Shown: in pieces, positions 2,435 through 43,200 of the stretch | Layout: each line of letters opens with the position of its first letter | How positions within the stretch are numbered: the stretch's first letter is position 1 | NCBI GenBank assembly: GCA_963816145.1 | Contig: CAWFJP010000024.1 | Span: 48,929-112,928 of the forward strand | From: an uncultured delta proteobacterium | GTDB lineage: Bacteria; Desulfobacterota; Binatia; UBA9968 | DNA: 64,000 nucleotides | Direction: 5' to 3' | The notes under the pieces: generated by a model | What the model was told of the DNA's origin: nothing | What the model saw: only the letters and a program-made list of their open reading frames with translations | The model's database searches: none | Made by a program: the position numbers and the translations under genes

Positions 2435-3115
2435 CTAGCTCCGACCCCCGCGCCCGTATAAACTTACCAGACGGGCCACCATCACCGCTAGAAACAGTTG
2501 ACCGCCGACCCCTTCGACGATGGCCAGGCCGCGCGCCACATCGGTGCGCGGCACGATATCGCCGTAACCGAGCGTCGCCAGCGTCACAAAGCTGAAATAG
2601 AAAGCGCTCATGCGCGAAAAGTCGCCGGGCGCGGCGAACGTTCCCGGCCTCGTTTGCTCAAGCACCCAGTAGAGTAAGCCGAAAAAAATTCCCGCGAGCA
2701 AGTAAGCGCTGAGCGCAGCGTAGAGGTGTTCGGCATCGACCCGGGTTGCCCGCATGGCAAATCGCAAAGCGAAGCCGGCAGCGAGCAGGCCGATCAATAT
2801 CCACAGTCCGAGCGTGGCGGCAGAGAGCAGCGGATGATCGAACCAGACCGTCACCGGCCGCGCCAACCAAATCAAAGCAACGGCGAGCATAACGCCGGGT
2901 TTTCTCGCCTGGCCGATCGGGGTTACCGCGGCAAGCAGGCTCGCCGCCAGAAGGAAGTCGACCAGCGCGCCGGTAAAGCCCAAGGTGGTGATGAGCGGCA
3001 AGCCCCCCACGGTAAGCAAGAGCATATAAAACAGTATGGTGTATCGCCGGCGCAGATAACCTTGCGCGAAACCGTGCAAACCGCCGGCGCGCGTATCGAT
3101 CGCTGCGGACATCAC
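2435..3115 (-). CDS. Ion channel (Ion_trans_2 / potassium-channel family)
   Basis: Multiple TM helices and pore signature FYFSFVTLATLGYGDIVP. Confidence 0.88.
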   Translation of the reverse strand: MMSAAIDTRAGGLHGFAQGYLRRRYTILFYMLLLTVGGLPLITTLGFTGALVDFLLAASLLAAVTPIGQARKPGVMLAVALIWLARPVTVWFDHPLLSAATLGLWILIGLLAAGFALRFAMRATRVDAEHLYAALSAYLLAGIFFGLLYWVLEQTRPGTFAAPGDFSRMSAFYFSFVTLATLGYGDIVPRTDVARGLAIVEGVGGQLFLAVMVARLVSLYGRGGRS

Positions 3116-3280
3116 GCTTTACTCCCCGTCGCGCCCAGGACGACTGGATTGTTGGAGCACTGGAATGTTGGAAGGCTGGCGATTAAATGCATAACTCCCT
3201 TACTGCCGCACTCCATCGCTGCGTTTTGGCCGACCTCTCATTCCTTAACGGCTTGAACGTTTTGAACGTGTTTTTTTATT

Positions 3281-4677: not shown

Positions 4678-7600
4678 TTAGTGAGGTCCTCCTGACGGAT
4701 TGTGAGCTTCGGAAGGAGCGGCGTGAATCTCGGCCGGTCCGGGCGCAGGGCTTTTCTTCTTCGCGAAGCGACGAATTACGTCGTAAAACACCGGTGTAAA
4801 GACCAGACCGAAGAAAGTTACACCGAGCATGCCGCTGAAGACCGCCACGCCCAAGGCAAAGCGCATCTCAGCGCCGGCTCCTTTGGCGACGACCAGCGGC
4901 ACCACGCCGAGGATGAAAGCGAACGCAGTCATGAGAATCGGCCGCAGGCGCACGCGCGAGGCTTCGACCACGGCGTCGACGCGGCTCTTGCCCTCGTCTT
5001 CGAGCTGCTTGGAAAACTCGACGACGAGAATGGCGTTTTTAGCGGCCAGACCGATCAGTGTGATCAGACCGATTTGGGTAAAAATGCTGTTATCGAGTTT
5101 CATAAAGTTGACGCCGATTAATGCGGCCAACAGACACATCGGCACGATCAGCAGAATGGCAAAGGGCAACGACCAGCTTTCGTATTGCCCCGCCAGAACC
5201 ATAAAGACGAACAGCACGGATAACGGGAATATGATCTTGGTCAGGAAATCCTTCTCGGCGAGGATCTGCTGCAGCGACAGCTCGGTCCACTCGAAGCCCA
5301 ACCCGGACGAGAGCTGCTCGCCCACCAACTTCTCGCTGGTAGTGATCAGTTGGCCGGAGCTCACTCCAGGCGCTGGAATAATATTCACCTCGGCGGAAGG
5401 ATAAATGTTGTAATGGTTGACGATCGCCGGGCCGCTGGTGGTTTTAACTTTGATAAACGTGTCCAGAGGCACGCGGTCACCGGCGCCATTGCGCACTTCC
5501 AACCGGCCTATGTCCGGTGTTTTATCGCGAAAGCTCGGATCGGCCTGCACGTTGACCTGCCAGTTGCGCCCTTGGAAGGAAAAATCGTTGACGTAAATCG
5601 AGCCGAGATAAGTCTGTAATGTCGTATTGATCTCGTCGAGAGAGACATTTTGCGCCTTGGCTTTTTCACGATCGATATCGACAAACAGTTGCGGCTGGGT
5701 GACGCCGAAGGAAGTGAACATACCGGCAAAGGTCGGATCGCGCTGGCCCGCTTCGACGATCGATTGGACACCACCCTCCAAGGTCCTCAGTCCGGCGGCG
5801 CGCCGGTCTTGAACGTGGAGTTTCGATCCACCCGTGGCGCCTAGCCCATCGATCGGCGGGGCGTTGAAGATGCCGATGCGAGCTTCCTGGAAGCCGGCAA
5901 GTTTCTTGCGCAACTCCACGGCAATCTCGTTGGCCCCCAGTCCCGGGATACCGGCGCGCTCTTCGAAGGGATCGAGGATCACGAACATGCCGCCGATGTT
6001 GCTGATGTTGGTGCCCAGCAAGATTGAATAACCCGGCACGTCGATTGAGTAAGCGACGCCCTTGGTTTTGCGCGCCACTTCGCTGATCTGCGCGATCATC
6101 TTATCGGTGCGCTCCAGGCTGGCGCCTTCCGGCAGCTGGGCGTTGAGAACCAAATAACCCTTGTCTTGTTCCGGGATAAAGCCCTTGGGCGTTACGTTGA
6201 AGCCCCAGACCGTCAGCGCCAACAGACCGCCGTAAATAACCAGCACGATAAAACCGACCCGCACGAGGCTGCGCACGATCTTACCGTAGCCGTTGGCGAG
6301 ACGATCGAAAAAGCGGTTGAACACGCCGAGAAACAAACCGATGCCATGGTTGATCGGGCTCCTGAACATCCAGCCCACCCCGGTGCCCACTGCGAACACG
6401 CCGAGACGCACCGCCCAAAGACCCCATTGCGAAGTTTGGTGCACCGCTTCGGCTTCGGCGCCGTGAGCCGGCGCAGCCATGCCCAGGAGCGCCAGCACAT
6501 GGGGCGTGACATAGTGATAGACGATAAAACCGACGAGGGCGGCAATCCCCTGCGGCGGCAGGGCATCGCGGTGATGTCCCGGGGTGTGCGGCTTGATCAA
6601 TGTAACGGCGCGCGCCGGCGCCATGGTCATCGCGTTGATCGCCGAGATAATGACTGAAACCGCTATGGTCAAAGCGAATTGCCGGTAGAACTGTCCCGAT
6701 ATTCCCGCCAAAAACGCGGTCGGCACGAACACCGAGCTCAACACCAGCGTGATCGCGATGACCGGCCCGGTAATCTCGTCCATCGCCTTGATGGTCGCTT
6801 CGCGCGCCGGCATCCCCGTGGACATCCATCGTTCGATGTTTTCGACGACGACAATGGCATCGTCGACGACAATGCCGATCGCCAGAACCAGACCGAATAG
6901 CGTCAGGTTGTTGAGCGAAAATCCCATCACCGCCATTATCGCGAGCGTGCCGATCAGCGACACCGGCACGTCGATCATCGGCATCAGCGTCGCGCGCCAA
7001 TCGCCCAAGAAAATCAGCACGACGATAAACACCAGCACAAAAGCTTCGAACAAAGTCTTGTAAACCTCGTGCACCGATTCGTTGACAAACACCGTCGTAT
7101 CGTAAACGATCCGGTACTCGACTCCTTCAGGGAACCGGCTCTTCAGTTCCGCCATCTTGGCTTTAATCTGCTCGGCGGTCTCGAAGAGCGTTGGCGCCGG
7201 GCAATTGAAAAACCGCCAGGGTTGCGGCCGGCAACCTGTTCTCTTTGGAGCCGAGGTAGCTATTGACGTCGTAGTTCTTGGCGCCGAGCTCGATGCCGCG
7301 CAGAATCATCTTGCCGTCTTTGTCGTATTTGCTGTCGCTGACGACGTCGCGCAAATAGACGATCTGCCCCTGTTTGCCGGTCTTGATGATAATGTTGTCG
7401 AACTGCTCTTCAGCGGTGAACCGGCCTTGGGTATTGATCGGCAACTGGAACGGCACCGACGAGCCCTGGGGCACCGGCGGCTGGCCGATGCGGCCGGCGG
7501 CCACCTGCACGTTTTGCTCTTTGATCGCGCTAATGACATCGCTCGCGGTCATTTGACGGGAAGCGAGTTTGGTCGGGTCGAGCCAGACGCGCATGCTGTA

Positions 7601-8146
7601 GTCGCGCGCGCCGAGGAAAGTCACGTCGCCGACGCCTTTCACGCGCGCCAGATCGTCCTTGATATTCAAGGTGGCGAAGTTGCTCAGATAGAGTTGATCG
7701 TAGCGCCCGTTGGGAGAGACCAAATTAACCACGAGCAGGATGCTTGGCGATTTTTTCTTGGTCGAGATGCCGAGCCGTTTGACCTCTTCGGGCAGCTTCG
7801 CTTCGGCGATCGCGACGCGGTTTTGCACCAGCACTTGCGCGGCGTCGAGATCGGTCCCGAGCTCGAAGGTCACATCGAGCGTCAACTGGCCGTCGTTGGT
7901 GCTGCGCGAAAACATGTAGAGCATGCGCTCGACGCCGTTCACCTCTTGTTCGATCGGCTGGGCGACGGTCTCGGCGACCGTGACGGCGTTGGCGCCCGGG
8001 TACGTCGCTGTCACCTGAATTGTCGGCGGCACGACTTCGGGATACTGCGAAATCGGCAGCTGCGTCAGCGCCACCAATCCGATGAGAACGATCACCAAAG
8101 AAAGAACCGTTGCGAAAATCGGACGGTCAACAAAAAATTCGGCCAT
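4678..8146 (-). CDS. RND efflux permease (AcrB/HAE1 family), split by one frameshift near 7160-7190
   Basis: N-half FFVDRPIFA...PEVVPPTIQV; C-half GIVVDDAIVVVENIER, LAAKNAIL, RLRPILMT. Confidence 0.95.
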
Positions 8147-31553: not shown

Positions 31554-31603
31554 CCCCCTAAAGCATGCAAATTTGTTTAGCAACGACTGTGTCGCAGTAT
31601 CAA

Positions 31604-31948
31604 GGGACGAGTGTCGGGTGTCGAGGGAAAGAAATACAACTCGCCGGTCGACACTTCTTCACAGGAGGCAACGGAGGAAACAGAGATTTTAAGAAAACCC
31701 TCCGTTGACTCCGTTTGCTCCTCTGTCGTACCGAGGGTCGAGGGTCGGGTGTCGAGGGAATGAAATACAACCCGCCGGTCGTCACTTCTTAACAGGAGGC
31801 AACGGAGGAAACAGAGATATTTTTAAACTCTCCGTTAACTTCGTTTGCTCCTGTTAGATAGGATTTCTCTTCACTCGACCCTCGACACTCGACACTCGTC
31901 CCTCAATCTGCCCCTCGACACCCGACACTCTAACACTCTTTCACTCGT
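31604..31948. repeat. Composite repeat block: two ~131-bp tandem units each with an ACAGGAGGCAACGGAGGAAACAGAG hairpin, plus (CTCGACA/C)n heptamers
   Basis: 31612-31687 nearly identical to 31744-31818; inverted arms CTCCGTT..CTCCGTTTGCTCCTGT. Confidence 0.85.
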
Positions 31949-33259
31949 CTACTTTTCCCCCACCTCTTCCTGCGCCAACATTCCCATCACCTCGTCGGCG
32001 TAACGGTTGTGGCGTAACAGATTGGCCATCATTTTCATCGGCCGGTCGATATGTTTGAAAAATGCTTTGTACCCCGCGCACAGATAATTGAGCCCCGGCT
32101 CGCCCTCCGGCGTGGTGATGAAACGGTTCTTGGGGCACTCGCCGTGACAGGCGAAGCGCACTTCGCACTGCCGGCAGTATTTCGGCAATGTGTCGCGCTT
32201 GTCTTGGCCGAATTTGATCTGCGCCGGCGAGGTTAAGAGCTCGATCATGTGGCTCTGTTGAATGTTGCCGAGTTTGTACGCAGGTTCGACGTAGTGGTCG
32301 CAGCTATAGAGGTCGCCGTTGTGCTCCAGGGCCAGTGCACCGCCGCAGGTCTCGGCGAAGATGCACACCGCGCCGGGCACGCCGAGCCAGTTGGCCAAAG
32401 CCGAGTCGAAATGCTGGACATAAATTTTGCCGACGTCGCGGCGCACCCATTCATCGAAGATGGCCATGAGAAATTTCCCGAACGGCTCGGCCTGCACCGA
32501 ACGGTCGGTGACCAGACTGCCTTCGATGGTGTAAAGCGGCCGGTCGCCGCCGGGACGCTCGCTCCAGCCTTGGTTGGCGATCGGCAGCATGGCGTCGCTG
32601 ACGCGCTCGACGATCGGGATGAACTGGAGATACTGGGCGCCGAGTTCATCGCGGAAAAAATGGTAGAGTTCCAGCGGATGATTCTGATTGGCGGCGTGGA
32701 CCGTGCACATAATGTTGAAATCGACGTTGTGCTTCTTGAGATTGTCCAAGCCGCGCATGACCTGGTCGAAGCTGCCTTCGCCGCCTTTGTTGACCCGGTA
32801 GGTGTCGTGGATTTCTCTCGGCCCGTCGACGCTCAAGCCGACGAGAAAGTTGTTTTTCTTGAAAAAAGCGCAAAGCTCGTCGTCGAGTTGGGTGCCGTTG
32901 GTCTGCACCGTATATTCGATCCGCTGGTGCGGCCGCTTGTACTTGTCGGCGTACTGCACCGACTTTTGAAAAAACTCCAAACCCATCAACGTCGGTTCAC
33001 CGCCCTGCCAGGCGATAGTAACCTCCGGAGTCTGGTGACTTTCGAGCAACTGCTTGATGTAGGTCTCGAGCAGCTCATCCGCCATACGGAAGCGGCTGCC
33101 GGGATAAAGCATTTCTTTGGAAAGAAAAAAACAGTACTTGCAGTCGAGATTGCAGATCGCCCCGGTAGGCTTGGACAAAATGTGAAACGCCGGCGGCGCG
33201 TTCTTGGGCAGCGTCAGCCCGCTCGGGTCGCTTGCCGGCGAATTATTGGGATTGTTCAT
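31949..33259 (-). CDS. Anaerobic sulfatase maturase (radical SAM/SPASM)
   Basis: CNLDCKYC, WQGGEP, YSCDHYV, CRQCEVRFACHGECPK. Confidence 0.95.
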   Translation of the reverse strand: MNNPNNSPASDPSGLTLPKNAPPAFHILSKPTGAICNLDCKYCFFLSKEMLYPGSRFRMADELLETYIKQLLESHQTPEVTIAWQGGEPTLMGLEFFQKSVQYADKYKRPHQRIEYTVQTNGTQLDDELCAFFKKNNFLVGLSVDGPREIHDTYRVNKGGEGSFDQVMRGLDNLKKHNVDFNIMCTVHAANQNHPLELYHFFRDELGAQYLQFIPIVERVSDAMLPIANQGWSERPGGDRPLYTIEGSLVTDRSVQAEPFGKFLMAIFDEWVRRDVGKIYVQHFDSALANWLGVPGAVCIFAETCGGALALEHNGDLYSCDHYVEPAYKLGNIQQSHMIELLTSPAQIKFGQDKRDTLPKYCRQCEVRFACHGECPKNRFITTPEGEPGLNYLCAGYKAFFKHIDRPMKMMANLLRHNRYADEVMGMLAQEEVGEK

Positions 33260-33302
33260 TGTGATGGCCTATGGTCTGTGACATCAGTTGCCGATCTTTC
33301 GA

Positions 33303-33729
33303 TTTAACAGGAGCAAACCTGGAGGGATTTTACACAGGAGGTAACGAAGGTAACAGAGATTGATATTGCTAAGAATAACTCCTTTCCCTCTGTTTGCTCC
33401 TGTTCAAATCTCGATCTTCGTTATCTCCGTTGCCTCCTGTGATAAATTTCTTTTCCTCGTCTCCGGCTTGATTCCGTCATCACCGGTTCGCTCCCGGCAG
33501 AAACAGCCGCGGTCTTCCTATTTAACAGGAGCAAACCTAGAGGGATTTTACACAGGAGGCAACGGAGGTAACGGAGATTGATATTGCTAAGAATAACTCC
33601 GTTCCCTCTGTTTGCTCCTGTTCAAATCTCCGATCTTCGTTACTTCGTTTCCTCCTGTTAGAAATTTCTTCTTTCCCTCTTCTCCTGCTTGATTCGTCAT
33701 CACCGGTTCGCTCCCGGCAAAAACAGCCG
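33303..33729. repeat. Tandem duplication (~210 bp x2) of a composite hairpin plus the last codons of the GxxExxY gene
   Basis: 33303-33509 vs 33521-33729 align end to end with few differences. Confidence 0.9.
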
Positions 33730-34101
33730 ATGAACGCCGTTCGTCAATTTCATTTCGTGAAAGTTTATCAGCAATCCAACCGGCACATTGAGAAGCTTCA
33801 TGTAACTCAATAATTGCGCTTTGTGGATCGGCAGAATCTTTTCGACAGCCTTTGCTTCGACCAAAACGCAGCCGTCCACGAGCAGATCAAAACGTAACAG
33901 ATCCTCCCGCGTGAAACCCTTGTACTCGATCGACACACCCCGCTGACTCACAAAAGGCAGACCCCGCAATTCGAGCTCTTTCGTCAGGCACCACTCGTAG
34001 ATAGACTCCATCAAACCCGGACCTTTGTCGCGATGCACTTCGATGGCCGCGCCAATGATAACCTCGGTCAGGCCGTATGCTTTTTCGTACAGGAAATGCA
34101 T
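33700..34101 (-). CDS. GxxExxY protein (PD-(D/E)XK nuclease superfamily)
   Basis: GPGLMESIY, FDLLV...VEAK, AQLLSYMK, GLLINF; likely start at ATG 34101 (ORF track extends into the repeat). Confidence 0.93.
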   Translation of the reverse strand: MHFLYEKAYGLTEVIIGAAIEVHRDKGPGLMESIYEWCLTKELELRGLPFVSQRGVSIEYKGFTREDLLRFDLLVDGCVLVEAKAVEKILPIHKAQLLSYMKLLNVPVGLLINFHEMKLTNGVHRLFLPGANR

Positions 34102-34109
34102 CACTGATC

Positions 34110-34196
34110 TAACAGGAGGTAACGGAGGAAACGGAGCTTCCCCAAAAAACCATCCCATCTCTGTTACCTCCGTTAACTCCGTTTGCTCCTGTTCAA
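34110..34196. repeat. ACAGGAGG-family hairpin directly upstream of GxxExxY
   Basis: AACAGGAGGTAACGGAGGAAACGGAG ... CTCTGTTACCTCCGTTAACTCCGTTTGCTCCTGTT. Confidence 0.85.
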
Positions 34197-34231
34197 ATGA
34201 ATTCCCTCTTCACTCCACACCCGACACTTTT

Positions 34232-35200
34232 CTACTTCTTCCGCACGATGCAGCGAATGCCGATATGACTCATGCCGGTGTCGATCATCTGCGGTTGGCG
34301 CGCCGCCGGGCGATAACGCAAGCAATAGTTGGGCGCGCATAAGTGCGAACCGCCTTTGACGACTTTGCGCGGAATACGAAATTGCGGTTGTGCCGGATCG
34401 TAGCTTTTATCCGGCGATTCGATGCGCGGATTGACCGCCGGGCCGCAGCAGGGTTTGACGACTTCGTCGGCGCGCCGCGGCACGAACCAGTCGCAGGTCC
34501 ATTCCCACACGTTGCCGGCCATGTCATAAAGCCCATAACCGTTAGCCGGAAAGCTTCCGACCGGAGAAGTTCCCTCGTAGCCGTCGAGTAATTTGTTCTG
34601 CCAAGGAAATTCTCCCTGCCAACTATTGGCCATCGCCTTGCCGCCGGGAAAATCCTCATCGCCCCAGGTGAACTTCTTGCCGTCAAGGCCGCCGCGCGCG
34701 GCAAATTCCCACTCCGCTTCAGTCGGCAGGTTTTTGCCGGCCCAGCCGGCATAGGCCTCGGCGTCTTCGTAGGCGACGTGAACCACCGGGTGTTGCTCGA
34801 TACCGTCAAGTGAAGAGCCTGGCCCGAACGGGTGGCGCCAGCTCGTGCCCGGCGCCCAGACCCACCAGTTGGCGTAGTTTTTTAAATCGACCGCGCCGGC
34901 GGTTTTGTGAAACAACATCGAGCCCGGCACCAAATTCTCCACCGGCGCGCCGGGAAAGTCCGCGGCATTGAGCGGGCGCTCGGCAAGCGTGACGTAACCG
35001 GTCGCGGCGACAAAGCGCGCAAACTGCTCGTTGGTCACCGTGTAGCGGTCGATCCAGAAACCGTCGACACTGACCTCGTGTACCGGACGTTCTTCCGGGT
35101 AGAAATCTTCCGACCCCATGCGAAAAGTCCCGCCCGGAATCCAGACCATGTTGGGATGCGGCGCAGCATCAGGTTGGCTGACTGACGTTATTGTGTTCAT
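34232..35200 (-). CDS. Formylglycine-generating enzyme (sulfatase-modifying factor)
   Basis: LPTEAEWEFAARGG, GLYDMAGNVWEW, KGGSHLCAPNYCLRYRPAAR with both catalytic Cys. Confidence 0.95.
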   Translation of the reverse strand: MNTITSVSQPDAAPHPNMVWIPGGTFRMGSEDFYPEERPVHEVSVDGFWIDRYTVTNEQFARFVAATGYVTLAERPLNAADFPGAPVENLVPGSMLFHKTAGAVDLKNYANWWVWAPGTSWRHPFGPGSSLDGIEQHPVVHVAYEDAEAYAGWAGKNLPTEAEWEFAARGGLDGKKFTWGDEDFPGGKAMANSWQGEFPWQNKLLDGYEGTSPVGSFPANGYGLYDMAGNVWEWTCDWFVPRRADEVVKPCCGPAVNPRIESPDKSYDPAQPQFRIPRKVVKGGSHLCAPNYCLRYRPAARQPQMIDTGMSHIGIRCIVRKK

Positions 35201-35221
35201 GGACCACCTCTTAAAATCAAA

Positions 35222-35625
35222 TTGAACAGGAGTTCAGAGAGGCAAACAATACGGATTTTGCACAGGAGGTAACGGAGAGAACCGAGATATATTTCTTAAA
35301 GACAAACTCTGTTTGCTCCGTTTGCTCCTGTTTAAAATTCATTTCTGATATTTCAATTGCCTCCTGTTAAATTGAATCCCTCTTAACTCGACCCTCGACA
35401 CTCGTCACTCGTCACTTCTTCACAGGAGCTAACAGAGCAAACAGAGTTTAGTTAGATTCGTCTCCGTTCTCTCCGTTGCCTCCTGTTCAATTGAATCTCT
35501 CTTCACTCGACCCTCGACACTCGTCCCTCGACACTCGCCTCTTCTTCACAGGAGCTAACAGAGGAAACAGAGTTTAACAAAATTCTTTTGGGTTCCCTCC
35601 GTTGTCTCTGTTTGCTCCGGTTCAA
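35222..35625. repeat. Three ACAGGAG-family hairpins interleaved with heptamer repeats
   Basis: Units at about 35222-35370, 35420-35490 and 35547-35625; CTCGACCCTCGACACTCG spacers. Confidence 0.85.
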
Positions 35626-36902
35626 AATTTACTCTCTCGTGCCGCTGATGGCAGGTCCTTGCACCGCGAGGCATCGAACACCACCTGGTCATACCACCAC
35701 AAGCGCTCGAAGAGGGCGCGCGCGGTGTCGCGCTGACCGCGCGCACCGGCGATCTCGCCGGCGGAACGCGTGCCGTCGATCGCATCGAAGATTTTTTTCT
35801 GCTGCGCGTCGATCGGCAAGTAAAGGTCGGTGTAGCTGTGGCTCCGATTGATCAGCACCGCGGCGGCACCGGGCGGCAGCCGCTCTTGAACGCAGATCGT
35901 CGCCGACATGCGAATCGGCACATAGCCAAGCCAGGCGTCACCGGTAAAACTGATCGGTTGCCGGTCGCCAGGAACATCATCACGGTAAACGACCGCGCTG
36001 TGGCGCACCATCGTGCCGCGAAACAGTTCCACCGCGGCATACTGCTCTGCCAACGGAAGCTCTGCCAGCCGGGCCGCCTGCGGGATATTAGCGATCACGC
36101 CGCAACCAGGGCTGTAGGGAGCTTGTCTGATCCAGCGACCGAAGCCCAGTGCTCCGCGATTGATGAAATCGAAAAATTGCGCCACCGAATACGCGCGGTC
36201 TTGCGGGTGCAATAGCGCGTCGGCGAGCGCCGCCTCGTGCCGAAACTCCGGTGCTTCGCGCAGCAGGTTTCCCAGCGGATGCCCGGGTGGCAGCGCCTTG
36301 AGCGCGGCGCTGAGATCGCGAATCCCGTCATCGGTGGCGGAGATGCCGAGCCGCCGGCAAAACTCCTGCAGCATATAGATACCGGTGCGTCCGTACGGCG
36401 CGTACACCATAAGATGCATCGCGCCCTCCGGTTTGAGTACATCGCGCAGAGCTCTGAGCCCTGCGTCAGGGTCGGCAAGATGATGCAGCACTCCGGTGCA
36501 GACGATCTGATCGAAATTCTTTGCCAGTTCTTGTACCCGCTCGACGGCAAGCTGATGGACCTGGAGATTTTCTAATTTGTATTTGCGTTTAAGTTCCTCG
36601 GTACAGCGCACACTGGTTGCGCTGAAGTCGACGCCGGTGACCTGAGCCTCGGGCCAGCGCATGGCATGCTTGGCCGCCTGCGAGGTGCCGCAGCCGGCAA
36701 TCAAGATTGAGTAATCTTCCCGAAACGATCGAGCGGGCCAAAACAGATGGTAGTCCGCGCGGCGCTTTTGTCGGTCCTGCCAAAGCTGCCGATATTTTTC
36801 CAGACTGTCGATCGGCCGTGGATAAGGATAGCGCTCGTAGAAATCCCGGACTTCCTCGTCCACGGCAACTAAAGTCGAAGGATTTTTTTCTTGCCGGCTC
36901 AT
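35622..36902 (-). CDS. Class I SAM-dependent methyltransferase
   Basis: ILIAGCGT, GVDFS, FDQIVCTGVLHH, LKPEG. Confidence 0.88.
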   Translation of the reverse strand: MSRQEKNPSTLVAVDEEVRDFYERYPYPRPIDSLEKYRQLWQDRQKRRADYHLFWPARSFREDYSILIAGCGTSQAAKHAMRWPEAQVTGVDFSATSVRCTEELKRKYKLENLQVHQLAVERVQELAKNFDQIVCTGVLHHLADPDAGLRALRDVLKPEGAMHLMVYAPYGRTGIYMLQEFCRRLGISATDDGIRDLSAALKALPPGHPLGNLLREAPEFRHEAALADALLHPQDRAYSVAQFFDFINRGALGFGRWIRQAPYSPGCGVIANIPQAARLAELPLAEQYAAVELFRGTMVRHSAVVYRDDVPGDRQPISFTGDAWLGYVPIRMSATICVQERLPPGAAAVLINRSHSYTDLYLPIDAQQKKIFDAIDGTRSAGEIAGARGQRDTARALFERLWWYDQVVFDASRCKDLPSAARESKF

Positions 36903-36974
36903 GGGGACTTTCCAAGCAATTTATAAGTATGACGCCAGTTCATGAGAAAATCCCTCCCAACCTCCCTTTGCCAA

Positions 36975-37106
36975 GAGGCTGTGTCGCAACTGTCATTCCG
37001 AGGTGAAGCCGAGGAATCTCTTCTTCGTATGTGGCTGAAAATACGAGATCCCTCGCTCCGCTCGGGATGACAGATGTGGGGCATTTGCGCATTGCGACAC
37101 AGCCTC
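36975..37106. mobile_element. MITE-like element, 15-bp perfect TIR, 3-bp TSD (CAA)
   Basis: GAGGCTGTGTCGCAA ... TTGCGACACAGCCTC; removing it restores the palindrome CCTCCCTTTGCCAAAGGGAGG. Confidence 0.8.
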
Positions 37107-37145
37107 CAAAGGGAGGCGGAACTCCCCCTCTTTAGCAAAGAGGGG

Positions 37146-37320
37146 CCAGTGTGCCGACCCAAAAGTTCGCTACATAATTCATCCGTCATTCCGGGCAAGC
37201 TGGCGATCGCTAGCGCGACGCGGAATCCAGGACAATCGCGAACCTGGATGCCGGCCTTCTCCGGCATGACGATATCAGGCCGTCCGCCTTGTTTTGCGAA
37301 CCTCTGGACCACGACACTAG
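37146..37320. mobile_element. Degenerate MITE-like element carrying a GTCATTCCGG-type REP pair
   Basis: Imperfect 25-bp inverted ends (CCAGTGT...GTTCGC / GCGAAC...ACACTAG); removal restores AAAGAGGGGCTAGGGGAGATTT. Confidence 0.55.
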
Positions 37321-37428
37321 GGGAGATTTTTGAATTTGGCATCCAACCAATGTTCCTATGTGTCACCAACAGGTTCAACGTCTGTGTTACGGCAGCGGTC
37401 GTCTGGTAATCGGCGCATTAGAGTTATT

Positions 37429-37836
37429 TCACAGCAGAACGATGTCCCCGATTATCGTGACCAAAAGTATCGCCCCAAGCAAGAAAATCACGCCGGCCAT
37501 CTGAAAATTCGGGTTGCTAAAGACGCTCTCTTTCCGGCCCAATCTCTTCAAGGTCCGGTAATATTGAATCATCATGACAAACAAGGGGACGGTTCCCGCC
37601 ACCAGCATGAAGAGCGCGACATTCCTTGGCGTCTCAGGCCGAATTAGTTTCGTGGAAGTATGCTCAAGCACGTAGCGGAGCACATTGAATATCGTGAAAC
37701 CGAAGCCGATAAACGACAACGATGTGCGCACGCCGGCAAGCATGGTCCGGTCCGCCGCTAAAACCGTTCGTTCAACCGCAAGCTTGTCGCTCAGGTGAAG
37801 GTCTTCGGGCTTAATTCCGTTCTCTTCCATTGCCAA
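37429..37836 (-). CDS. DUF202 (YidH-like) membrane protein
   Basis: LAADRTMLAGVRTSLSFIGFGF and 3 TM segments; real start may be ATG 37879 via an indel. Confidence 0.85.
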   Translation of the reverse strand: MAMEENGIKPEDLHLSDKLAVERTVLAADRTMLAGVRTSLSFIGFGFTIFNVLRYVLEHTSTKLIRPETPRNVALFMLVAGTVPLFVMMIQYYRTLKRLGRKESVFSNPNFQMAGVIFLLGAILLVTIIGDIVLL

Positions 37837-37914
37837 TCCCGATGGTGGTGAGCGACTGACTGATTTGGTTTGTATCCATGTTTAATTTCAAATTGTTAAA
37901 AGTTTTACTGGCTT

Positions 37915-39819
37915 TCACTTGTTTACGTTCGAAAGATTACTCTCATTGAGCGCAGCCAATCCCTTTGCGTGCTCGCGCAAAATTCGTTTGACCTCGAGGA
38001 TCGTTTCGGGATTCCCCTGGACCGAGTGTCCGGATCGAATAATCTTTTCCGACTCGACGCCGTCGATATGCGCGCTCATATATTTCACCACCCCGTCGCC
38101 CGCTTCATCGAGCGGCGCGTCGCTGTTCACGGCGATGATCGAGTTCGCTGTGACGCCATCGGCGATCGGGATGGCGATTAAATTTTTGATAAAGGTATTG
38201 TTCGGGTTCATGTTATCGATACTGGTCGGGATACCGGACACCGAGCCGAGAAATACTCCCTCTTTTTGAAGAGTCAGCAGGTCGACGCTCAGTTTGGTAA
38301 GCCGGCCCGGAAGATTTACCAGCCACGAACCTATAGCGCCGAGAATTCCCAGCGCCTGATAACTGCCTCGATGCGGCGTGGCGACAAAGACGACACGCTT
38401 GACGAACGGCAGCGGTTTGAGAATCAACCCGCGGGTCAACGTCTCCCGAGTTTCGGCTCTGACATCGAGTTCATCGGGAGAAACGCTGAAAGGCCAAAGA
38501 CCCATGCCGCTGTCGATGGCGGTCATCTTGGTCAGCAACCCACCTTGGCTATGACCCATGACAATCATCTGTTTCAGGCCAGGATCTTTTCCCTCTGGAT
38601 CAATATCCGCTATGGTTTGAATTAGGGCGTCGCGCAAAAGCATCGCCGAGTAGGCGATCGGGTTCCCCGTGTTGTAAACAAAAAACCAGAGATCGAATCT
38701 GTTGAAGAGCTGAGGATCATTGCCTACTTCGTTCACCAACTCCGCCCACCGCGCGGGGCTGGAGGCGGTTCCATGCACGAGCACCACCGGAATATGGCCG
38801 TAACGGTGGGGACCAAACATGAAAAGGCCGTCTCCCGATCGTGTTAAGCTAAAATCGCCGGAGCGAAATCCGGCGAATTCAAAATCCCAGACGGGCGAAC
38901 CTTCCAGCGTATCGGCCAGGGCGGATGATATTTCGTATTCAATGGGCACGTCAACGTTGTTAACCTTTACCGTCCTTGCGGAGTCGGGATTGTAGAGCTC
39001 CAAGTGGCCGGTGAGTTTTCCCGATACGAGATCGCCGCGAGCATCGTCATAGCGGAGAAAAGCGGCAACCGGAATTTTCATTCTTACAGGGATGCGTTTG
39101 TATTGCGCGCTGGCCAACGATCCCACCGGTTCGAGTGCGGCCACCAGCGGCGCTCCGACGCCAGGCTCACGGTAACGATTACGCAGTCCGCGGACCTCCA
39201 GCTCTGCGGCGGAAACAAAGTCTTTAAGCCGGAATCCCGTCCACAGCAAATCTTGCTCGTCGAAGGTGACGGTCAATTCCCCGAACGGCAGAACAAACTG
39301 ACCGCCTTTCAACACAACGTGCTCGCCGTCGTCTGCGGTCAACCCTCTGGCCAACCCCCGATTCAAAATGTCTACTGCCCAGCGGGTTCGCGGGTCAATG
39401 GCTCTGGGCGGCGTGCCATTCTTTCCCGGCAGGAGAAAGGCCGACGCATACGCCGTCGCGGCAAGGTAATAAGACCGGTCGCCGCTATTCTCCGCATAGA
39501 GAAATGAAAGCTCGGCAAGGGCGAAGACGCGCTCCTCATCGCCGGTGGGTGCCAAACCCTTATGCAACTTGGCGAGCGCTTCTTTGGGATCATTGTCGAA
39601 CAGCTCGTAGAGGCCTAGATTGAGCAGTTGCCGGGAAGAAAAGGAACTGGGCTTGTCGGTGTTCAGCGCATTGGCGGTGAGATCATACTGGGCTGTGCGC
39701 GGATCCACTCGGGTTACGCCGATGGGCGTGACGCAACCGGAAGCGACGAGCGCAATGCAACTTGCCAGCAGCGCCCAGCATCTTAACCGCCGTAAAATTA
39801 TCTTTGATCCTTCAGACAT
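37915..39819 (-). CDS. Alpha/beta-hydrolase lipoprotein (esterase/lipase)
   Basis: Lipobox ASGC, VVLVHG, GHSQGG nucleophile elbow, ATPHRGS, GDGVV. Confidence 0.88.
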   Translation of the reverse strand: MSEGSKIILRRLRCWALLASCIALVASGCVTPIGVTRVDPRTAQYDLTANALNTDKPSSFSSRQLLNLGLYELFDNDPKEALAKLHKGLAPTGDEERVFALAELSFLYAENSGDRSYYLAATAYASAFLLPGKNGTPPRAIDPRTRWAVDILNRGLARGLTADDGEHVVLKGGQFVLPFGELTVTFDEQDLLWTGFRLKDFVSAAELEVRGLRNRYREPGVGAPLVAALEPVGSLASAQYKRIPVRMKIPVAAFLRYDDARGDLVSGKLTGHLELYNPDSARTVKVNNVDVPIEYEISSALADTLEGSPVWDFEFAGFRSGDFSLTRSGDGLFMFGPHRYGHIPVVLVHGTASSPARWAELVNEVGNDPQLFNRFDLWFFVYNTGNPIAYSAMLLRDALIQTIADIDPEGKDPGLKQMIVMGHSQGGLLTKMTAIDSGMGLWPFSVSPDELDVRAETRETLTRGLILKPLPFVKRVVFVATPHRGSYQALGILGAIGSWLVNLPGRLTKLSVDLLTLQKEGVFLGSVSGIPTSIDNMNPNNTFIKNLIAIPIADGVTANSIIAVNSDAPLDEAGDGVVKYMSAHIDGVESEKIIRSGHSVQGNPETILEVKRILREHAKGLAALNESNLSNVNK

Positions 39820-40040
39820 TCGTGATTCTCCTATGTCGCTTCTCCGTTCATCGCCTCGGGCAAGGGATACGGCTCTCGGTTTTGCCGAGCCGGCTTCGTC
39901 GCAAGTCGCACTGACTTGGCAGGGTCCGAAACACGGTCATCGGCAATTATTTTAGTTTGCCTGTGGCTTTCATGTTCTTGCAGGCGGTTTTGCTGGCTGC
40001 ATCCGGTCGGTGTTCGATTGACCGCCGGGTTGCTTTTTAT

Positions 40041-40259
40041 GGGTCATCGCGTAATCGAGTGGGCGCTGACTTAATGGCAAATTACTCTTCCATGGCCGGT
40101 TCCTCCCTTTCGCAAAGGGAGGTTAGGAGGGATTTTTCATGGCTTGAAAGATCGTCTTCTGGACAAAATCCCCCCAACCCCCCTTTTCTAAAGGGGGGTG
40201 AAACCTACAAGAACAGCATTTCTCAACAAATTTCACCCACTCGATTACGCGAAGAGCCC
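40041..40259. mobile_element. MITE-like element, ~25-bp TIR, 7-bp TSD TTTTTAT
   Basis: GGGTCATCGCGTAATCGAGTGGG ... CCCACTCGATTACGCGAAGAGCCC; TTTTTAT at 40034-40040 and 40260-40266. Confidence 0.8.
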
Positions 40260-40304
40260 TTTTTATTTTGTCCGTACCCATCAGCCCGCTTGCGCGCTTC
40301 CCTT

Positions 40305-40601
40305 TCAGTGCGCGCGTAGGGATGCGACGAGACTCAGCAGATTTTCCGGCTGCACGTGAATAATGCCGCCGCGCGGGCTATCGATGTCCGCGATAGAGAA
40401 AGAACGAGATCGACACGAAAATCCGACGATGAGTGCGAGCAGCGTCAGCGTAGCGCCCAGGATGATGCCGAAGTCTTCACGCTTGTCTTCTTCCCACTTC
40501 AGCAGCCGCCGCAAAACGTTCGCCCCTATCGGCACCGAAAGCGATAAGACGACTAAAGAAATCACGAATACAAGCAGCGGATAGTCCGATACCTTGATCA
40601 T
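40305..40601 (-). pseudogene. Internally deleted DUF4239-like membrane protein
   Basis: N-terminal GATLTLLALIVGFS fused almost directly to C-terminal IADIDSPRGGIIHVQPENL; the middle is missing. Confidence 0.65.
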
Positions 40602-40755
40602 TGGGTCCTCGCGAGTTGGTAATTCAGCGAATCCTATCAGCCCGCTTTGATCGCCCTAAGCTCCACGACGCGTTCATCGACCAGCCATGAACTCCCAGCG
40701 TGAGAGTGTCTGACGTTTCAAAAGGCAGCGCTATCACTTTTGGTTTTTACCGCGG

Positions 40756-40790
40756 ATCCCCCCGGCGGACTCCTTGTCCGCCCGGGGGAT
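40756..40790. terminator. GC-rich hairpin downstream of sulfatase 1
   Basis: CCCGGCGGAC-TCCTT-GTCCGCCCGGG; a similar stem follows sulfatase 2; no clear U-tract on the minus strand. Confidence 0.45.
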
Positions 40791-40892
40791 TTTGCTCATT
40801 CTGCGAGCCTAAGCGAAGCAGCCATGAACGGATCGTGCAGTCAGTGCGCAGGACAGCTGACCGCGACTAAATCCCTCGCGCGCCCGCCGGGG

Positions 40893-42422
40893 TCAGGAAT
40901 GACCATGACTCGTCACCTGCGCCAGCACCGCATCCAGGTTGAACGAAGCGGGTTTCTGCCGCGGCGGGAACTTGGCGAAGTCCGCGATCTGCCCCGCTAT
41001 CAGCGCCTGCATCTGGTACATCTGGGGCACGTGATCGACCATCCAGTCCAGGTAGGTATTCGAATTGACCTCGGCCCGCTCGAACGGGTCGCGGCGGAGG
41101 TTCATTATATACGGCAGCCGAAGCTTCACGAACGGCTCGGCCCACTGTCTCATCGTATTGGCGCGTTGTTCCGCCAAATGAAACTTATAGTCGCCGATCC
41201 GCACCGCGATGACTTCTCCGTCGTCGCTGAAGTACACGATGGCGTTTCTCGGGCTCTCCTTCACCGCGCCGGTCAGGTAAGGGATCTGGTTGTAGCCGTC
41301 GAGATGGACCTTGTAGGTCATGTCACCGACCTTGTAGCCGTTGAGGAGCTTCTGCGTGACGTCCGGATCGCCGGCGGCAGCCAGCAGCGTCGGCATCATG
41401 TCGATGTGCGAGACGATCCCGTTCAGGACCGATCCGGCTGGGATCTTGCCCGGCCAGCGCATAAAGCACGGCACGCGCCAGCCGCCTTCCCAGTTGGAGT
41501 CCTTCTGGCCGCGGAACGGGGTGTTGGCGCCGTCCGGCCAGGTGTCGTTCTCCGGACCGTTGTCGGTGGAGTACATGACGATGGTGTTGTCGGCGATGCC
41601 CAGCTCGTCGAGCTTGTCGAGCATCTGGCCGATCTGTTCGTCGTGCACGACCATCCGATCGCTGTAGGGATCCTGCCCGCTCTTGCCGAGATTCTTCGCG
41701 GCGACGTGGGTGCGAAAGTGCATGGCCGTCGAGTTGTACCAGAGGAAGAACGGCTTGTCGGCTTTGGCTTGTTTCTCCATCCAAGCGATCGCGGCGTCAG
41801 TGATCTCTTCGTCGACGGTTTCCATGCGCTTCTTGGTCAGGGGACCGGTGTCCTGGACCTTCTGCTTGCCCACCCGGCCCCAGCGCGGTTCTTCAGTCGG
41901 GTCGTCTGTGTCCGTCGCCCACGAGTGGAGCACGCCGCGCGGCCCGAACTTCTTTTTGAATTCCGGATCCTTGGGATAGTCGGGCAATTCCGGTTCTTCC
42001 TCGGCGTTCAGGTGATAGAGATTGCCGAAGAACTCGTCGAAGCCATGCACGGTCGGCAGGAATTCGTTGCGGTCGCCCAGATGGTTCTTACCGAACTGGC
42101 CGGTGACGTAGCCGAGCGGCTTGAGCATTTCAGCGATGGTCGGGTCTTCCTTCTGCAGGCCGACGGTGGCACCGGGCATGCCGACCTTGGTCAGGCCCGT
42201 GCGGATCGGGTTTTGCCCGGTGATGAAGCACGCCCGGCCGGCGGTGCAACTCTGTTGGGCGTAGTAGTCGGTGAAGGTGACCCCTTCCTTCGCCACGCGG
42301 TCGATGTTAGGGGTCTGGTAACCCATCATGCCGCGGCTGAAGTGGCTGACGTTCCATATGCCGATGTCATCGCCCCAGAGGATAAGAATGTTGGGCTTTT
42401 TGTCAGCTTTTGCTTGTGCCAT
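40893..42422 (-). CDS. Arylsulfatase (Cys-type), copy 1
   Basis: KPNILILWGDDIG, SCTAGRA, GKNHLG, YSTDNG; no signal peptide. Confidence 0.95.
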   Translation of the reverse strand: MAQAKADKKPNILILWGDDIGIWNVSHFSRGMMGYQTPNIDRVAKEGVTFTDYYAQQSCTAGRACFITGQNPIRTGLTKVGMPGATVGLQKEDPTIAEMLKPLGYVTGQFGKNHLGDRNEFLPTVHGFDEFFGNLYHLNAEEEPELPDYPKDPEFKKKFGPRGVLHSWATDTDDPTEEPRWGRVGKQKVQDTGPLTKKRMETVDEEITDAAIAWMEKQAKADKPFFLWYNSTAMHFRTHVAAKNLGKSGQDPYSDRMVVHDEQIGQMLDKLDELGIADNTIVMYSTDNGPENDTWPDGANTPFRGQKDSNWEGGWRVPCFMRWPGKIPAGSVLNGIVSHIDMMPTLLAAAGDPDVTQKLLNGYKVGDMTYKVHLDGYNQIPYLTGAVKESPRNAIVYFSDDGEVIAVRIGDYKFHLAEQRANTMRQWAEPFVKLRLPYIMNLRRDPFERAEVNSNTYLDWMVDHVPQMYQMQALIAGQIADFAKFPPRQKPASFNLDAVLAQVTSHGHS

Positions 42423-42482
42423 TTGTTAGCTCCTTTCTGTTTCCTAAACCGTTGGTATTTAAAGTCATCAAAACCGTCGCCA

Positions 42483-43200
42483 CTTAACAGTAGACAACCG
42501 AGGCAACAATGGTTTTCATATGAATTCTCCGTTAACTCTGACCGCTCCTGCTAAATTGCCCGCTCTCCTCTCGACACTTGAAAATAAAAACTCGCTTCCA
42601 ATCCTTTTTCATATCCACTACCGGACAGTTGCGCGTATCTCCGTTATCTCCGTTTCCTCCTGTAAAAAATCCGAAGCGAGACGAGGGACGTGGGGTCGGG
42701 TGTCTAGGGAGGGGAAATTCTCTCGCCACTCGACACTTCTCACCTCGACACTCGTGCGTCACTCGTCTCTTTCTAACAGAAGCTAACAGAGGAAACAGAG
42801 TTTTCTTCAAAACAGTGAATTCGATCCATCCCGTTTGGAGCATTGTATTTGTTTTTCATCATTTTGAATTTGTTTCGAGCTTCGTGCTTCGGATTTAGTG
42901 CTTTCAAAATTGCAAATTCTTTGGCTAGCTTTACACTCACGATCTTCGCGTTACTTCACCAATTCGAAATTGAACGGCCGTCGGGTCGTTTTCGAACCAT
43001 GATATTTTTCAGGAGGCAACGGAGGGAACAGAGGTTTCCTGAAAAATACCTCCGTTAACTCTGTTTGCTCCTGTGAAGTACCGAGGGCCAAGTGTCGAGG
43101 GGAAGCTAACAGCAACATCAACTCACTTCATTCCTTGCTCTCTGTGCCCAGCATTTTCACTCGACACTCTTCCCTCGACACTTTTTTTCACTCGACATCC
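42483..43200. repeat. Mixed repeat block (ACAGGAG hairpins, heptamers, TTTCGAGCTTCGTGCTTCGGATTT)
   Basis: Arms at about 42638-42663, 42773-42800 and 43010-43074; heptamer runs 42676-42770 and 43081-43200. Confidence 0.8.

Follow-up and report, generated by a model that had tools for sequence, protein, structure and literature searches.

A GxxExxY nuclease gene enclosed by palindromes of 9-nt iterons: a candidate nuclease-plus-repeat element

Background

Among the closest described counterparts of the locus reported here are the REP/REPIN-RAYT systems (REPtrons) and the intervening sequences (IVS) of 23S rRNA. One end of a REP repeat is described as carrying the conserved tag GTAG, or CGTC (PMC3733652), and orphan repeat families that have no dedicated enzyme were noted by Di Nocera 2013. 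The IVS of Coxiella is presented in PMC4990558 as a selfish element, the mechanism of its mobility being given there as unknown. In a 2012 survey of the PD-(D/E)XK proteins (PMC3424549) the function of the GxxExxY family is entered as 'Unknown', and 'multiple transfers' are recorded for it. Here we compare with these systems a GxxExxY gene that lies among palindromic repeats in a 64-kb stretch of DNA (the window).

Results and discussion

A first-pass annotation of the window had described a lone GxxExxY gene that splits an fge-anSME pair in the same orientation, and this arrangement is confirmed by Pfam and NCBIfam searches, which identify three minus-strand genes (Table 1), and by tblastn, which finds a single GxxExxY gene in the window. 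The encoded protein exceeds the curated cut-off of PF13366 over the whole domain (127.2 bits against a cut-off of 22, E 5.4e-37) and that of the NCBIfam model TIGR04256 (133 bits, cut-off 35, E 5.9e-39). The E, D and ExK positions of the putative catalytic site are occupied by E32, D72, E82 and K84 in the window protein, and each of these four is at least 90% conserved in the family alignment (A1). In an AF2 model (pLDDT 97) the protein is predicted to possess the PD-(D/E)XK core within a restriction-endonuclease-like fold. The nearest folds in the PDB are PD-(D/E)XK enzymes (Cas4, lambda exonuclease, MGME1, EndA and Hjc), all of them weak matches (E > 1e-3, TM about 0.5), and no similarity to solved homing endonucleases is present among the PDB sequence or fold matches listed for this protein. 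The GxxExxY family comprises 16,292 clusters at 50% identity in a representative library (E up to 1e-3).

Table 1. Genes and repeat features surrounding the GxxExxY gene (positions in the window)
Feature	Position	Strand	Details
Two gene-less hairpins	31597..31935		31661-31724 and 31792-31854, in a 131-bp tandem unit
anSME (anaerobic sulfatase maturase)	31949..33259	minus	downstream neighbour of GxxExxY; TIGR03942, E 2.8e-146
Tandem duplicate of the 3' composite	33292..33509		218 bp, 93% identical; partner copy 33510-33729
Nested double hairpin 3' of the GxxExxY gene	33510..33699		partial arm 33521-33541; forward arm 33552-33576; reverse arms 33597-33621 and 33636-33660
GxxExxY / PDDEXK_3 nuclease gene	33700..34101	minus	133 aa, ATG at 34101; PF13366, TIGR04256
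Hairpin directly 5' of the GxxExxY gene	34108..34192		forward arm 34112-34136; reverse arm 34168-34192; extra unit 34159-34165
FGE-sulfatase domain protein	34232..35200	minus	upstream neighbour of GxxExxY; PF03781, E 1.8e-85
Three gene-less hairpins and partial arms	35222..35627		35262-35331, 35422-35486 and 35548-35621; between FGE and methyltransferase gene
Degenerate hairpin, lone arms and hairpin	42487..43074		hairpins 42487-42551 (degenerate) and 43009-43074; reverse arm 42639-42663; forward arm 42776-42800

Arms of the repeat in the window consist of three 9-nt units, each with a 7-nt core (AAC[AG]GAG) and two free bases and reading GGAGGNAAC or GTTNCCTCC; they end in ACAGGAG/CTCCTGT, with TTGA/TCAA or runs of T/A outside. 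The exact pattern CAGGAGNNAACRGAGNNAACRGAG has 13 matches in the window and 0 in each of 100 dinucleotide shuffles. Twenty-three arms (11 forward and 12 reverse) were found in the 64 kb by a regular expression that allowed up to 5 substitutions, 22 of them within 31661-43074 (~11.5 kb), while the remaining one, at 16781, has 5 mismatches and lies in coding sequence. Every repeat copy that the first-pass annotation had listed, from 31661 to 43009, is present, including those at 35222-35331 and, within the duplicated composite region, at 33303-33440. Its description of conserved arms and differing loops also holds, as the 10 hairpins in these 64 kb of genome, tandem duplicates excepted, vary in their free bases and also in loop sequence. 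Likewise the gene is bracketed, as had been described, by the 5' hairpin and the 3' composite: arms are located on both sides and are complementary across the ORF, with 17-nt complementary arms at 33646-33662 and 34108-34124, a pair that is reached in 0 of 200 shuffles.

Local tandem duplication (periods of 131, 126 and 218 bp) would account for most of the window copies; their free positions have diverged, and nothing points to a recent burst of the repeat among them. In the 218-bp duplication the final ~35 nt of the GxxExxY ORF are repeated at 33475-33509 (tblastn match 33518-33483; nhmmer E 0.025). The two hairpins of 31597..31935 are flanked by inverted arrays of ~7-nt CTCGACA-type units (31603-31627 and 31879-31903). 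For annotation purposes it may be noted that several ORF predictions extend into or across the repeats.

Other types of element were considered. Integron attC sites have boxes of the consensus R''/R' = RYYYAAC ... GTTRRRY; the units GGAGGNAAC and GTTNCCTCC have purines where pyrimidines are required, no integrase was found among the window ORFs, and this assignment was rejected. Intrinsic terminators were rejected as well: the hairpins lack a GC-rich stem with a T run and are followed by A-rich or TCAA sequence, and the 6 terminator-like sites in the window (5.7 expected in shuffles) include none at a hairpin. An Rfam search of 30-45 kb found no rRNA and no Rfam family for the repeat. With respect to MITEs and TIR transposons, target-site duplications accompany 0-1 of 68 hairpins for k = 4-8, which is the level of shuffled partners, and the short forms are not internal-deletion derivatives of the coding form. 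No transposase domain was detected in the 56 window ORFs scanned, and none recurs in the 128 listed loci that are described below.

The repeat had been proposed to be the private family of the GxxExxY gene, which proved incorrect, as the same repeat type is spread over very many genomes of the Planctomycetota and Verrucomicrobiota. A scan with the repeat alone gave at least 128 loci (326,566 bp), in which GxxExxY was sought with the family HMM; 113 of the 128 listed loci carry titles of Verrucomicrobiota or Planctomycetota. Five of the 128 hold GxxExxY, intact in L056, L041, L051 and L016 and internally deleted in L072, and the four intact copies and the window protein share 61-75% identity. 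All 5 matches lie within the 55,689 bp (17%) near or between arms and 0 in the other 270,877 bp, for which we calculate a chance of (0.17)^5, about 1.4e-4. GxxExxY is also the only ORF cluster (from 2,455 ORFs) to occur in at least 4 of the listed loci. These samples, namely the listed repeat loci and the plasmid records discussed below, are small; they support the conclusion that the link between gene and repeat is not a coincidence of the window.

Gene-less repeats predominate, and 75 of 80 flanked listed loci are without a GxxExxY gene within 2 kb. A DNA profile of the gene (nhmmer) revealed no remnants in the gene-less listed loci, except for L072 and positions 33482-33518 of the window. 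L056 and L041 both have a forward arm, then 6-7 nt before the ATG of the gene, and 4-12 nt between its stop and a reverse arm, while L051, L016 and L072 have a hairpin, the gene and then a reverse arm. A simple bracket test was passed by 7 of 13 gene-bearing loci and failed by L051, L130, L132, L133, L134 and L136; L132 has the 5' arm only, the arrangement in L133 is ambiguous, and the repeats of L136 are direct, not inverted. The six related copies (the window and five listed loci) reside in six unrelated gene contexts. Signatures of translated arms are found in N- or C-terminal extensions of 9 close relatives among the best 150 library representatives. Two further features of the listed loci are the nesting of other palindromes within the hairpin loops of L014, L015 and L060 and the occurrence of group II intron RT-like ORFs in three hairpin loci.

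The same design is found in other phyla. Eight plasmid records have a GxxExxY match, and among these, genes lie next to or between similarly built arms with other unit sequences, with gene-less copies located nearby. The genes of Bernardetia and B. finegoldii, for example, have inverted arms of 3 x 9 nt with C[AG]C[AG]GAG units (0 of 200 shuffles), and in the 24.8 kb of B. finegoldii there are also 2 gene-less pairs. In Treponema the arms that enclose the gene pair over 11 nt (reached by 2 of 200 shuffles), and the frameshifted copy of Gemmatirosa lies between 2 of 6 hairpins in 50 kb. Prevotella has a forward arm, the gene and a reverse arm, together with gene-less tandem copies in which forward and reverse arms are 15 nt apart. 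Genes in these records are wedged between neighbours of the same orientation (fabD and fabG, radA and a FAD-dependent protein, ade and mannose-1-phosphate guanylyltransferase).

Pairwise protein identities in the plasmid records match the type of flanking repeat and support the view that unit type tracks similarity of the GxxExxY protein and not host taxon, as judged from these sequence comparisons. The proteins of Treponema and Fusobacteria, which belong to different phyla and both have CACGGAT units, are mutual best matches (42% identity), and those of B. finegoldii, Bernardetia and Gemmatirosa share 46-55% identity; Prevotella belongs to the same taxonomic order as B. finegoldii and has a different unit, and its protein is 38% identical to that of B. 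finegoldii. The core C[AG]GAGG, which looks like a Shine-Dalgarno sequence, is common to protein clades with no more than 42-49% identity, and a common host factor would also fit.

We favour, with a probability of roughly 0.45, the interpretation that the hairpins and the GxxExxY gene represent one co-inherited and probably selfish element, in which an ORF for a small PD-(D/E)XK nuclease is placed inside or directly beside a palindrome with arms of about three 9-nt iterons. The protein would recognise the iterated core on DNA and cut at or near the palindrome, and repair or recombination between copies would then spread the repeat and, more rarely, the gene; the gene-less palindromes would be targets of the nuclease or non-autonomous relatives, and the arms may pair around the ORF in the transcript. 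Several observations weigh against this interpretation: the arms show neither covariation nor target-site duplications, the window copies are diverged and mostly attributable to tandem duplication, gene remnants are nearly absent from gene-less copies, most listed repeat loci have no nearby gene, 6 of the 13 gene-bearing loci fail the bracket test, and one core is common to distant protein clades. A wider and more tentative proposal, which we think rather doubtful, is that GxxExxY/PDDEXK_3 proteins are the enzymes of a previously unrecognised mobile or homing superfamily, a PD-(D/E)XK counterpart of RAYT-REP, in which each clade would recognise its own 9-nt iteron, build or invade its palindromes and seed the repeat families of Planctomycetota, Verrucomicrobiota, Bacteroidota, Gemmatimonadota and other phyla.

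It is less likely that the gene is an insulated passenger comparable to the 23S rRNA IVS. The arms would in that case have a role in RNA only, where they would enclose the ORF in a stem and undergo processing (e.g. by RNase III), allowing a small gene to sit in operons without polar damage; the gene-less hairpins would then be generic RNA elements of these lineages, and the nuclease would have an unrelated job and no contact with the repeat. Precedent for an ORF-bearing stem described as selfish is provided by the Coxiella IVS (PMC4990558), and GxxExxY genes occur in tight gaps of operon-like runs in the orientation of the host genes. Seven elements were folded as sense RNA, and in the predicted minimum free energy structure of all 7 the 5' and 3' arms pair with each other and enclose the entire ORF (10-37 terminal pairs); the predicted stems are stable on either strand (mean -25 to -27 kcal/mol). 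Against this, base-pair covariation of the arms is absent at six variable positions among 68 hairpins (Watson-Crick pairs observed/expected 23/26.0, 19/22.3, 33/30.6, 25/27.7, 12/19.0 and 30/30.1), from which we conclude that selection acts on the sequence of the units and that the folded hairpin is a prediction. On the transcribed strand G-U is not in excess of A-C (14 against 7 in the window, and 75 against 75 elsewhere, where orientation is unassigned), and the passenger explanation accounts neither for the match of unit type with protein clade across phyla nor for the absence of other gene families in such stems in the listed loci.

The conservation of the 7-nt cores as a motif, with free spacers and no covariation, is as would be expected for protein-binding sites, and would also be compatible with a host regulon in which GxxExxY is a trans-acting endonuclease or binding protein, beneficial to the host, for hairpin-tagged transcripts or DNA sites, with autoregulation through the sites at its own gene. 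The very wide occurrence of the repeats in two phyla, and copies that look old and diverged and not recently multiplied, would suit such a role. We nevertheless consider it improbable: gene copies decay (L072 and Gemmatirosa), related copies split conserved neighbours in unrelated contexts, and the family has many thousands of clusters and the 'multiple transfers' of the 2012 survey (PMC3424549), so that a selfish gene fits better than a regulator. That there is no functional link, a mobile small gene merely accumulating at palindromes that are hot spots for illegitimate recombination or insertion, as the other nested palindromes and the group II intron RT-like ORFs might suggest, is highly improbable given that GxxExxY is the sole recurrent neighbour in the listed loci, that in L056 and L041 the arms are 2-12 nt away from the two ends of the gene, and that gene and repeat occur together again with other unit types, in keeping with protein similarity.

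The recurrent arrangement of gene and repeat offers an initial clue to the function of a very large family that is uncharacterised, the 9-nt iteron arms that follow protein clade being a cis partner that gives a testable nuclease hypothesis for GxxExxY with a defined substrate. If the protein acts on the repeat, extragenic palindromic repeats would have a further class of associated enzyme, the second after the HUH RAYTs, and the origin of repeat families would be explained in phyla that have no known dedicated enzyme.

Comparison with known systems

The locus shares with REP/REPIN-RAYT a single enzyme gene flanked by a family of extragenic palindromes, the great majority of which lack the gene, the occurrence of repeats as inverted pairs, the lack of target-site duplication and a repeat type matched to enzyme lineage. 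However, the enzyme is a 133-aa PD-(D/E)XK protein and not an HUH/Y1 (IS200/IS605-type) transposase, the arms are arrays of 9-nt iterons without a GTAG or CGTC tag, the window copies are diverged, and one repeat type spans two phyla. The REP/REPIN-like nuclease system first suggested for this locus is partly supported: it stands in its recurrent link of gene and repeat, its lack of a transposase and its unit type that follows the protein, but not in those features that would make it a REP system proper, namely an HUH enzyme and a GTAG tag.

As in the 23S rRNA IVS, terminal inverted repeats surround a small ORF and a long stem is possible in the transcript (here predicted), but the element is located between protein-coding genes, whereas the IVS occupies helix 25 or 45 of 23S rRNA, from which RNase III excises it, and the ORF encodes GxxExxY in place of the S23p four-helix bundle. 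MITEs with an autonomous TIR transposon similarly have terminal inverted repeats and occur in a coding form together with numerous forms that do not code; unlike these, our element has no target-site duplication and no transposase domain, and its short forms are free of gene remnants. Free-standing homing endonuclease genes, finally, differ in having a unique gene site where the presumed target here is a multicopy palindrome, and solved homing endonucleases are not among the listed PDB matches, but they resemble this locus in being lone small nuclease genes that lie between conserved neighbours, in the orientation of those neighbours, and of which decayed copies exist.

The GxxExxY gene and its repeats in the window

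The GxxExxY gene lies between the FGE and anSME genes in a stretch of the window (31-46 kb) where every gene is on the minus strand, a methyltransferase, a sulfatase and others being also present. By tblastn, it is the sole GxxExxY gene of the 64 kb. We located 22 arms, each of the form ACAGGAG-NN-AAC[AG]GAG-NN-AAC[AG]GAG or its inverse, between 31661 and 43074; one more match to the arm pattern elsewhere in the window (5 mismatches) is in coding sequence. The hairpin repeat described in the first-pass annotation is real, and its exact IUPAC pattern gives 13 matches in the window versus none in 100 shuffles. Ten hairpins (loops of 13-31 nt) and a number of lone arms are spread over five intergenic gaps. 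Local tandem duplication, at periods of 131, 126 and 218 bp, accounts for several of these copies, and the final ~35 nt of the nuclease ORF are part of the 218-bp unit. A hairpin adjoins one side of the gene and a nested double hairpin the other. The window ORF also lies within a complementary pair (see table), whose score was reached by 0/200 shuffles.

Outside the hairpins lie inverted arrays of a second repeat family, built from ~7-nt units (CTCGACA/CTCGTCC, inverse GTGTCGAG); the arrays at 31603-31627 and 31879-31903, for example, are 96% complementary. Analogous lineage-specific short-unit arrays adjoin the hairpin in three loci matched by the arm pattern (L001, L006 and L106). The window also contains a distant 28-nt inverted pair (see table), and the sequence at 40126-40139 is similar to the GGAGGGATTTTACA piece that lies ahead of composite hairpins. 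Elsewhere in the window an AcrB-type efflux pump is split into two adjacent ORFs, which may reflect a frameshift or an in-frame stop, and a low-GC segment looks like a decayed restriction-modification island.

Coordinates of the features discussed, in the window or in loci found by the arm pattern (L0xx) or on other records (L13x)
Sequence	Feature	Position	Strand	Remarks
Window	AcrB-type efflux pump, two adjacent ORFs	4678-7155, 7163-8146	-	N-terminal 327 aa, C-terminal 825 aa
Window	Low-GC segment	24900-28200		GC 0.51-0.53; HTH protein, N6_N4 DNA methylase piece, ResIII piece, short ORFs
Window	Arrays of ~7-nt units	31597-31935, 35370-35550, 42690-42765, 43085-43200
Window	Anaerobic sulfatase maturase (anSME)	31949-33259	-	Pfam/NCBIfam
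Window	GxxExxY / PDDEXK_3 protein, 133 aa	33700-34101	-	Pfam/NCBIfam
Window	FGE-domain protein	34232-35200	-	Pfam/NCBIfam
Window	Complementary pair enclosing the nuclease ORF	33646-33662 / 34108-34124
Window	28-nt inverted pair	36947-36974 / 40109-40136		93% complementary, 3.1 kb apart
L056 (Opitutales)	GxxExxY			intact
L041 (Opitutaceae)	GxxExxY			intact
L051 (Verrucomicrobiota)	GxxExxY			intact
L016 (Bythopirellula, Planctomycetota)	GxxExxY			intact; start region ~1930-1945 looks one base shifted
L072 (Planctomycetota)	GxxExxY	2046-2247		internally deleted, without roughly residues 44-100
L014	Arm pairs with nested palindrome	2025-2369, 3029-3361
L060	Arm pair with nested palindrome	2025-2315
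L130 (Gemmatirosa)	GxxExxY	~986-1356		frameshifted, read in two frames
L132 (Sphingomonas)	GxxExxY	971-1399		splits fabD/fabG
L134 (Prevotella nigrescens)	'Hypothetical protein'	1419-1850		probably not a gene

Distribution of the repeat

The repeat is not private to the genome of the window. The arm pattern is present in at least 128 loci of the genome collection, and the titles of the 128 matches listed indicate 66 Verrucomicrobiota, 47 Planctomycetota lineages, nine unclassified entries ('bacterium') and six others, namely two Binatia, one Burkholderiales MAG, two overlapping loci of one Chitinophaga-titled contig and one Firmicute, the last being Gly-rich coding sequence. The complete chromosomes NZ_CP036263.1 and NZ_CP197417.1 are among the records matched. 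An origin from CRISPR-like, coding (Gly-rich) or chance sequence fits only odd matches such as locus L061. When up to four mismatches were allowed, a tight hairpin (loop ≤60 nt) was found in 56 of these loci, a forward and a reverse arm 61-700 nt apart in 22, and lone arms only in 50. Loci L014 and L060 have arm-pair loops of 291-345 nt that contain a nested second palindrome of CACGGAT-type units, indicating that other palindromic elements enter the loops as well. In three loci (L006, L023 and L024) hairpins have group II intron reverse-transcriptase-like ORFs within 2 kb.

Sequence units and folding of the hairpin

Among 68 distinct tight hairpins the 7-nt cores hardly vary, and at the six variable positions no covariation between the arms was detected, the Watson-Crick pairs observed against those expected under independence being 23/26.0, 19/22.3, 33/30.6, 25/27.7, 12/19.0 and 30/30.1. 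G-T and A-C mispairs are balanced, and strand asymmetry between the two gave no clear signal. Rfam returned no known RNA family at E ≤1 over 30-45 kb, with only a sub-threshold miRNA match (26 bits; gathering score 80), and sigma-70 promoter and terminator scans placed the hairpins at the level of shuffled sequence. As the cores are near-invariant, and as covariation and terminator, promoter and Rfam signals are lacking, the conserved entity is a series of short sequence units, repeated every 9 nt and arrayed in inverted orientation. This is the pattern expected of binding sites. The hairpin would form, and the covariation test gives no sign of selection on the pairing. An integron attC assignment was rejected, as the sequence does not match the box consensus.

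Two alternative explanations of the gene and its repeats may be mentioned here. The arms might only fold around the ORF, providing a form of RNA 'insulation' similar to that of 23S rRNA intervening sequences (IVS). The missing covariation speaks against this explanation, which we regard as unlikely. It is less probable still that the arrays constitute a host regulon with autoregulation. In a crude ORF-based analysis of context, arms outside called ORFs (with hairpin arms merged) fall into approximately 30 co-directional, 11 convergent and five divergent settings, a result of low reliability because gene calls in high-GC DNA are rough.

The nuclease and its association with the repeat

The AF2 model of the window GxxExxY protein has a pLDDT of 97, and its nearest solved folds are generic PD-(D/E)XK enzymes (Cas4 SSO0001, lambda exonuclease, MGME1, tRNA-splicing endonuclease and Hjc), all of them weak matches (E > 1e-3, TM ~0.5). 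No relevant solved relative was recovered by a PDB sequence search, and the modelled fold does not reveal the substrate. Because E32, D72, E82 and K84 are conserved in GxxExxY proteins, the window protein is likely to be an active nuclease.

We searched 5,736 ORFs (≥40 aa) from the listed loci and the window with a family HMM that combined 93 library representatives with the window protein; 2-kb flanks were available for 80 listed loci (five pairs of which overlap). The HMM detected GxxExxY in five listed loci besides the window (see table). The intact copies and the window protein are 61-75% identical, and among the matches listed the window nuclease is closest to the Verrucomicrobiota copies (74-75%). 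All five genes are situated within the 17% of listed-loci sequence that either lies between paired arms or is ≤150 nt from an arm, the other 271 kb containing none, a placement with a chance probability of ~1.4e-4 by our own arithmetic. The association of the repeat with GxxExxY proposed in the first-pass annotation extends to the listed loci. Mere co-accumulation of the two is very improbable. All-against-all clustering of 2,455 ORFs identified GxxExxY as the sole ORF family in at least four listed loci. The absence of a transposase, also proposed there, agrees with our data: a Pfam scan of 17 + 39 window ORFs found no transposase or integrase domain, and no other mobility gene recurs in the listed loci.

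In L056 and L041 the forward arm ends 6-7 nt ahead of the ATG and the reverse arm begins 4-12 nt past the stop, so that the ORF is itself the 'loop', and in L051, L016 and L072 a complete hairpin is followed by the gene and then by a reverse arm. The six copies occupy six unrelated neighbourhoods (FGE and anSME; NrdR...HIT; an unknown gene and a MobA-like gene; DUF362 and T2SSE; glycosyltransferases; DUF1501). Locus L063 was rejected as an empty fge junction, as gene order differs there. Translations of the arm (QEETERTE, LRFLRCLL, SVSSVFSC) are present in the N- or C-terminal extensions of nine close relatives among the best 150 library representatives, these extensions having been read by eye as protein sequence. 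A tripeptide-periodicity score on ORF extensions gave 0/49; its threshold is overly strict here, the units having two free bases.

Related arrangements in other phyla

A tblastn search with GxxExxY matched eight plasmid records and gave no match in a phage collection. Arrangements of gene and repeat of the same design are found in other phyla. In Bernardetia and Bacteroides finegoldii the gene stands between inverted arms, each made of three 9-nt units whose core is CACAGAG, CGCAGAG or CACGGAG (0/200 shuffles), and B. finegoldii has two more gene-less arm pairs in 24.8 kb. The gene of Treponema saccharophilum is inside an 11-nt inverted pair with a CACGGAT unit (2/200 shuffles). The Prevotella nigrescens gene has arms of ACAAAT-type 9-nt units on both sides, and gene-less copies (forward arm, 15 nt, reverse arm) then follow in ~120-nt tandem units; the annotated 'hypothetical protein' in this record lies entirely over these repeats, each with its gene-less hairpin. 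Six CGCAGAGGA-type hairpins occur in 50 kb of the Gemmatirosa record, and the frameshifted gene is located between two of them. The Sphingomonas record has only a 5' array, of CGCGAAG units, and here the gene interrupts a conserved fatty-acid operon, separated from its neighbours by 33 nt and 2 nt. A Fusobacteria record has direct, not inverted, repeats beside the gene, and a Persicobacter record shows no clear arm layout around it. A simple ungapped bracket test was passed by seven of 13 gene-bearing loci; three of the six that failed (L051, L130 and L134) show arms by eye.

Unit type tracks protein similarity, not host taxon. Treponema and the Fusobacteria record, from different phyla, have the CACGGAT unit in common and are mutual best matches at 42%, and B. 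finegoldii, Bernardetia and Gemmatirosa, with CRCRGAG units, are 46-55% identical, whereas Prevotella, which belongs to the order of B. finegoldii, matches that species at 38% and carries another unit. This comparison of GxxExxY similarity with flanking repeat type, suggested in the first-pass annotation, favours a link between gene and repeat in a small sample of 10 proteins.

Interpretation and relation to known systems

The gene and the repeat form a unit that is inherited together, and this unit recurs across phyla with matching changes of unit type. Some copies of the gene have decayed, and the sites occupied are unrelated, conserved neighbours being split. It is possible that the GxxExxY nuclease recognises its own iterons and promotes their copying, either through homing-like conversion between copies of the repeat or in some other way, in which case the gene-less hairpins would be its targets or non-autonomous relatives; we assign this reading a probability of roughly 0.45. 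Counted against mobility are the absence of arm covariation, of target-site duplications at the hairpins and of gene remnants in the gene-less copies, the growth of diverged copies mainly by local tandem duplication, and the fact that 75 of the 80 flanked listed repeat loci have no gene within 2 kb.

The main text of PMC8934634 merely names the GxxExxY domain, that of PMC3424549 gives the function of PDDEXK_3 (PF13366/TIGR04256) as 'Unknown', with multiple transfers, and that of PMC3733652 covers GTAG- and CGTC-tagged REPs, not the window repeat; no description of a GxxExxY-repeat pairing was found in the main texts of the literature searched. The likeness to REP/REPIN elements drawn in the first-pass annotation stands in part: the REP/REPIN-RAYT system is the closest known one in logic, but its defining features, the HUH enzyme and the GTAG/CGTC tag, are absent here. 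ORF-bearing 23S rRNA IVS also have an ORF inside a stem, whereas the present elements are outside rRNA and their ORF family differs. In its placement the gene resembles free-standing homing endonuclease genes.
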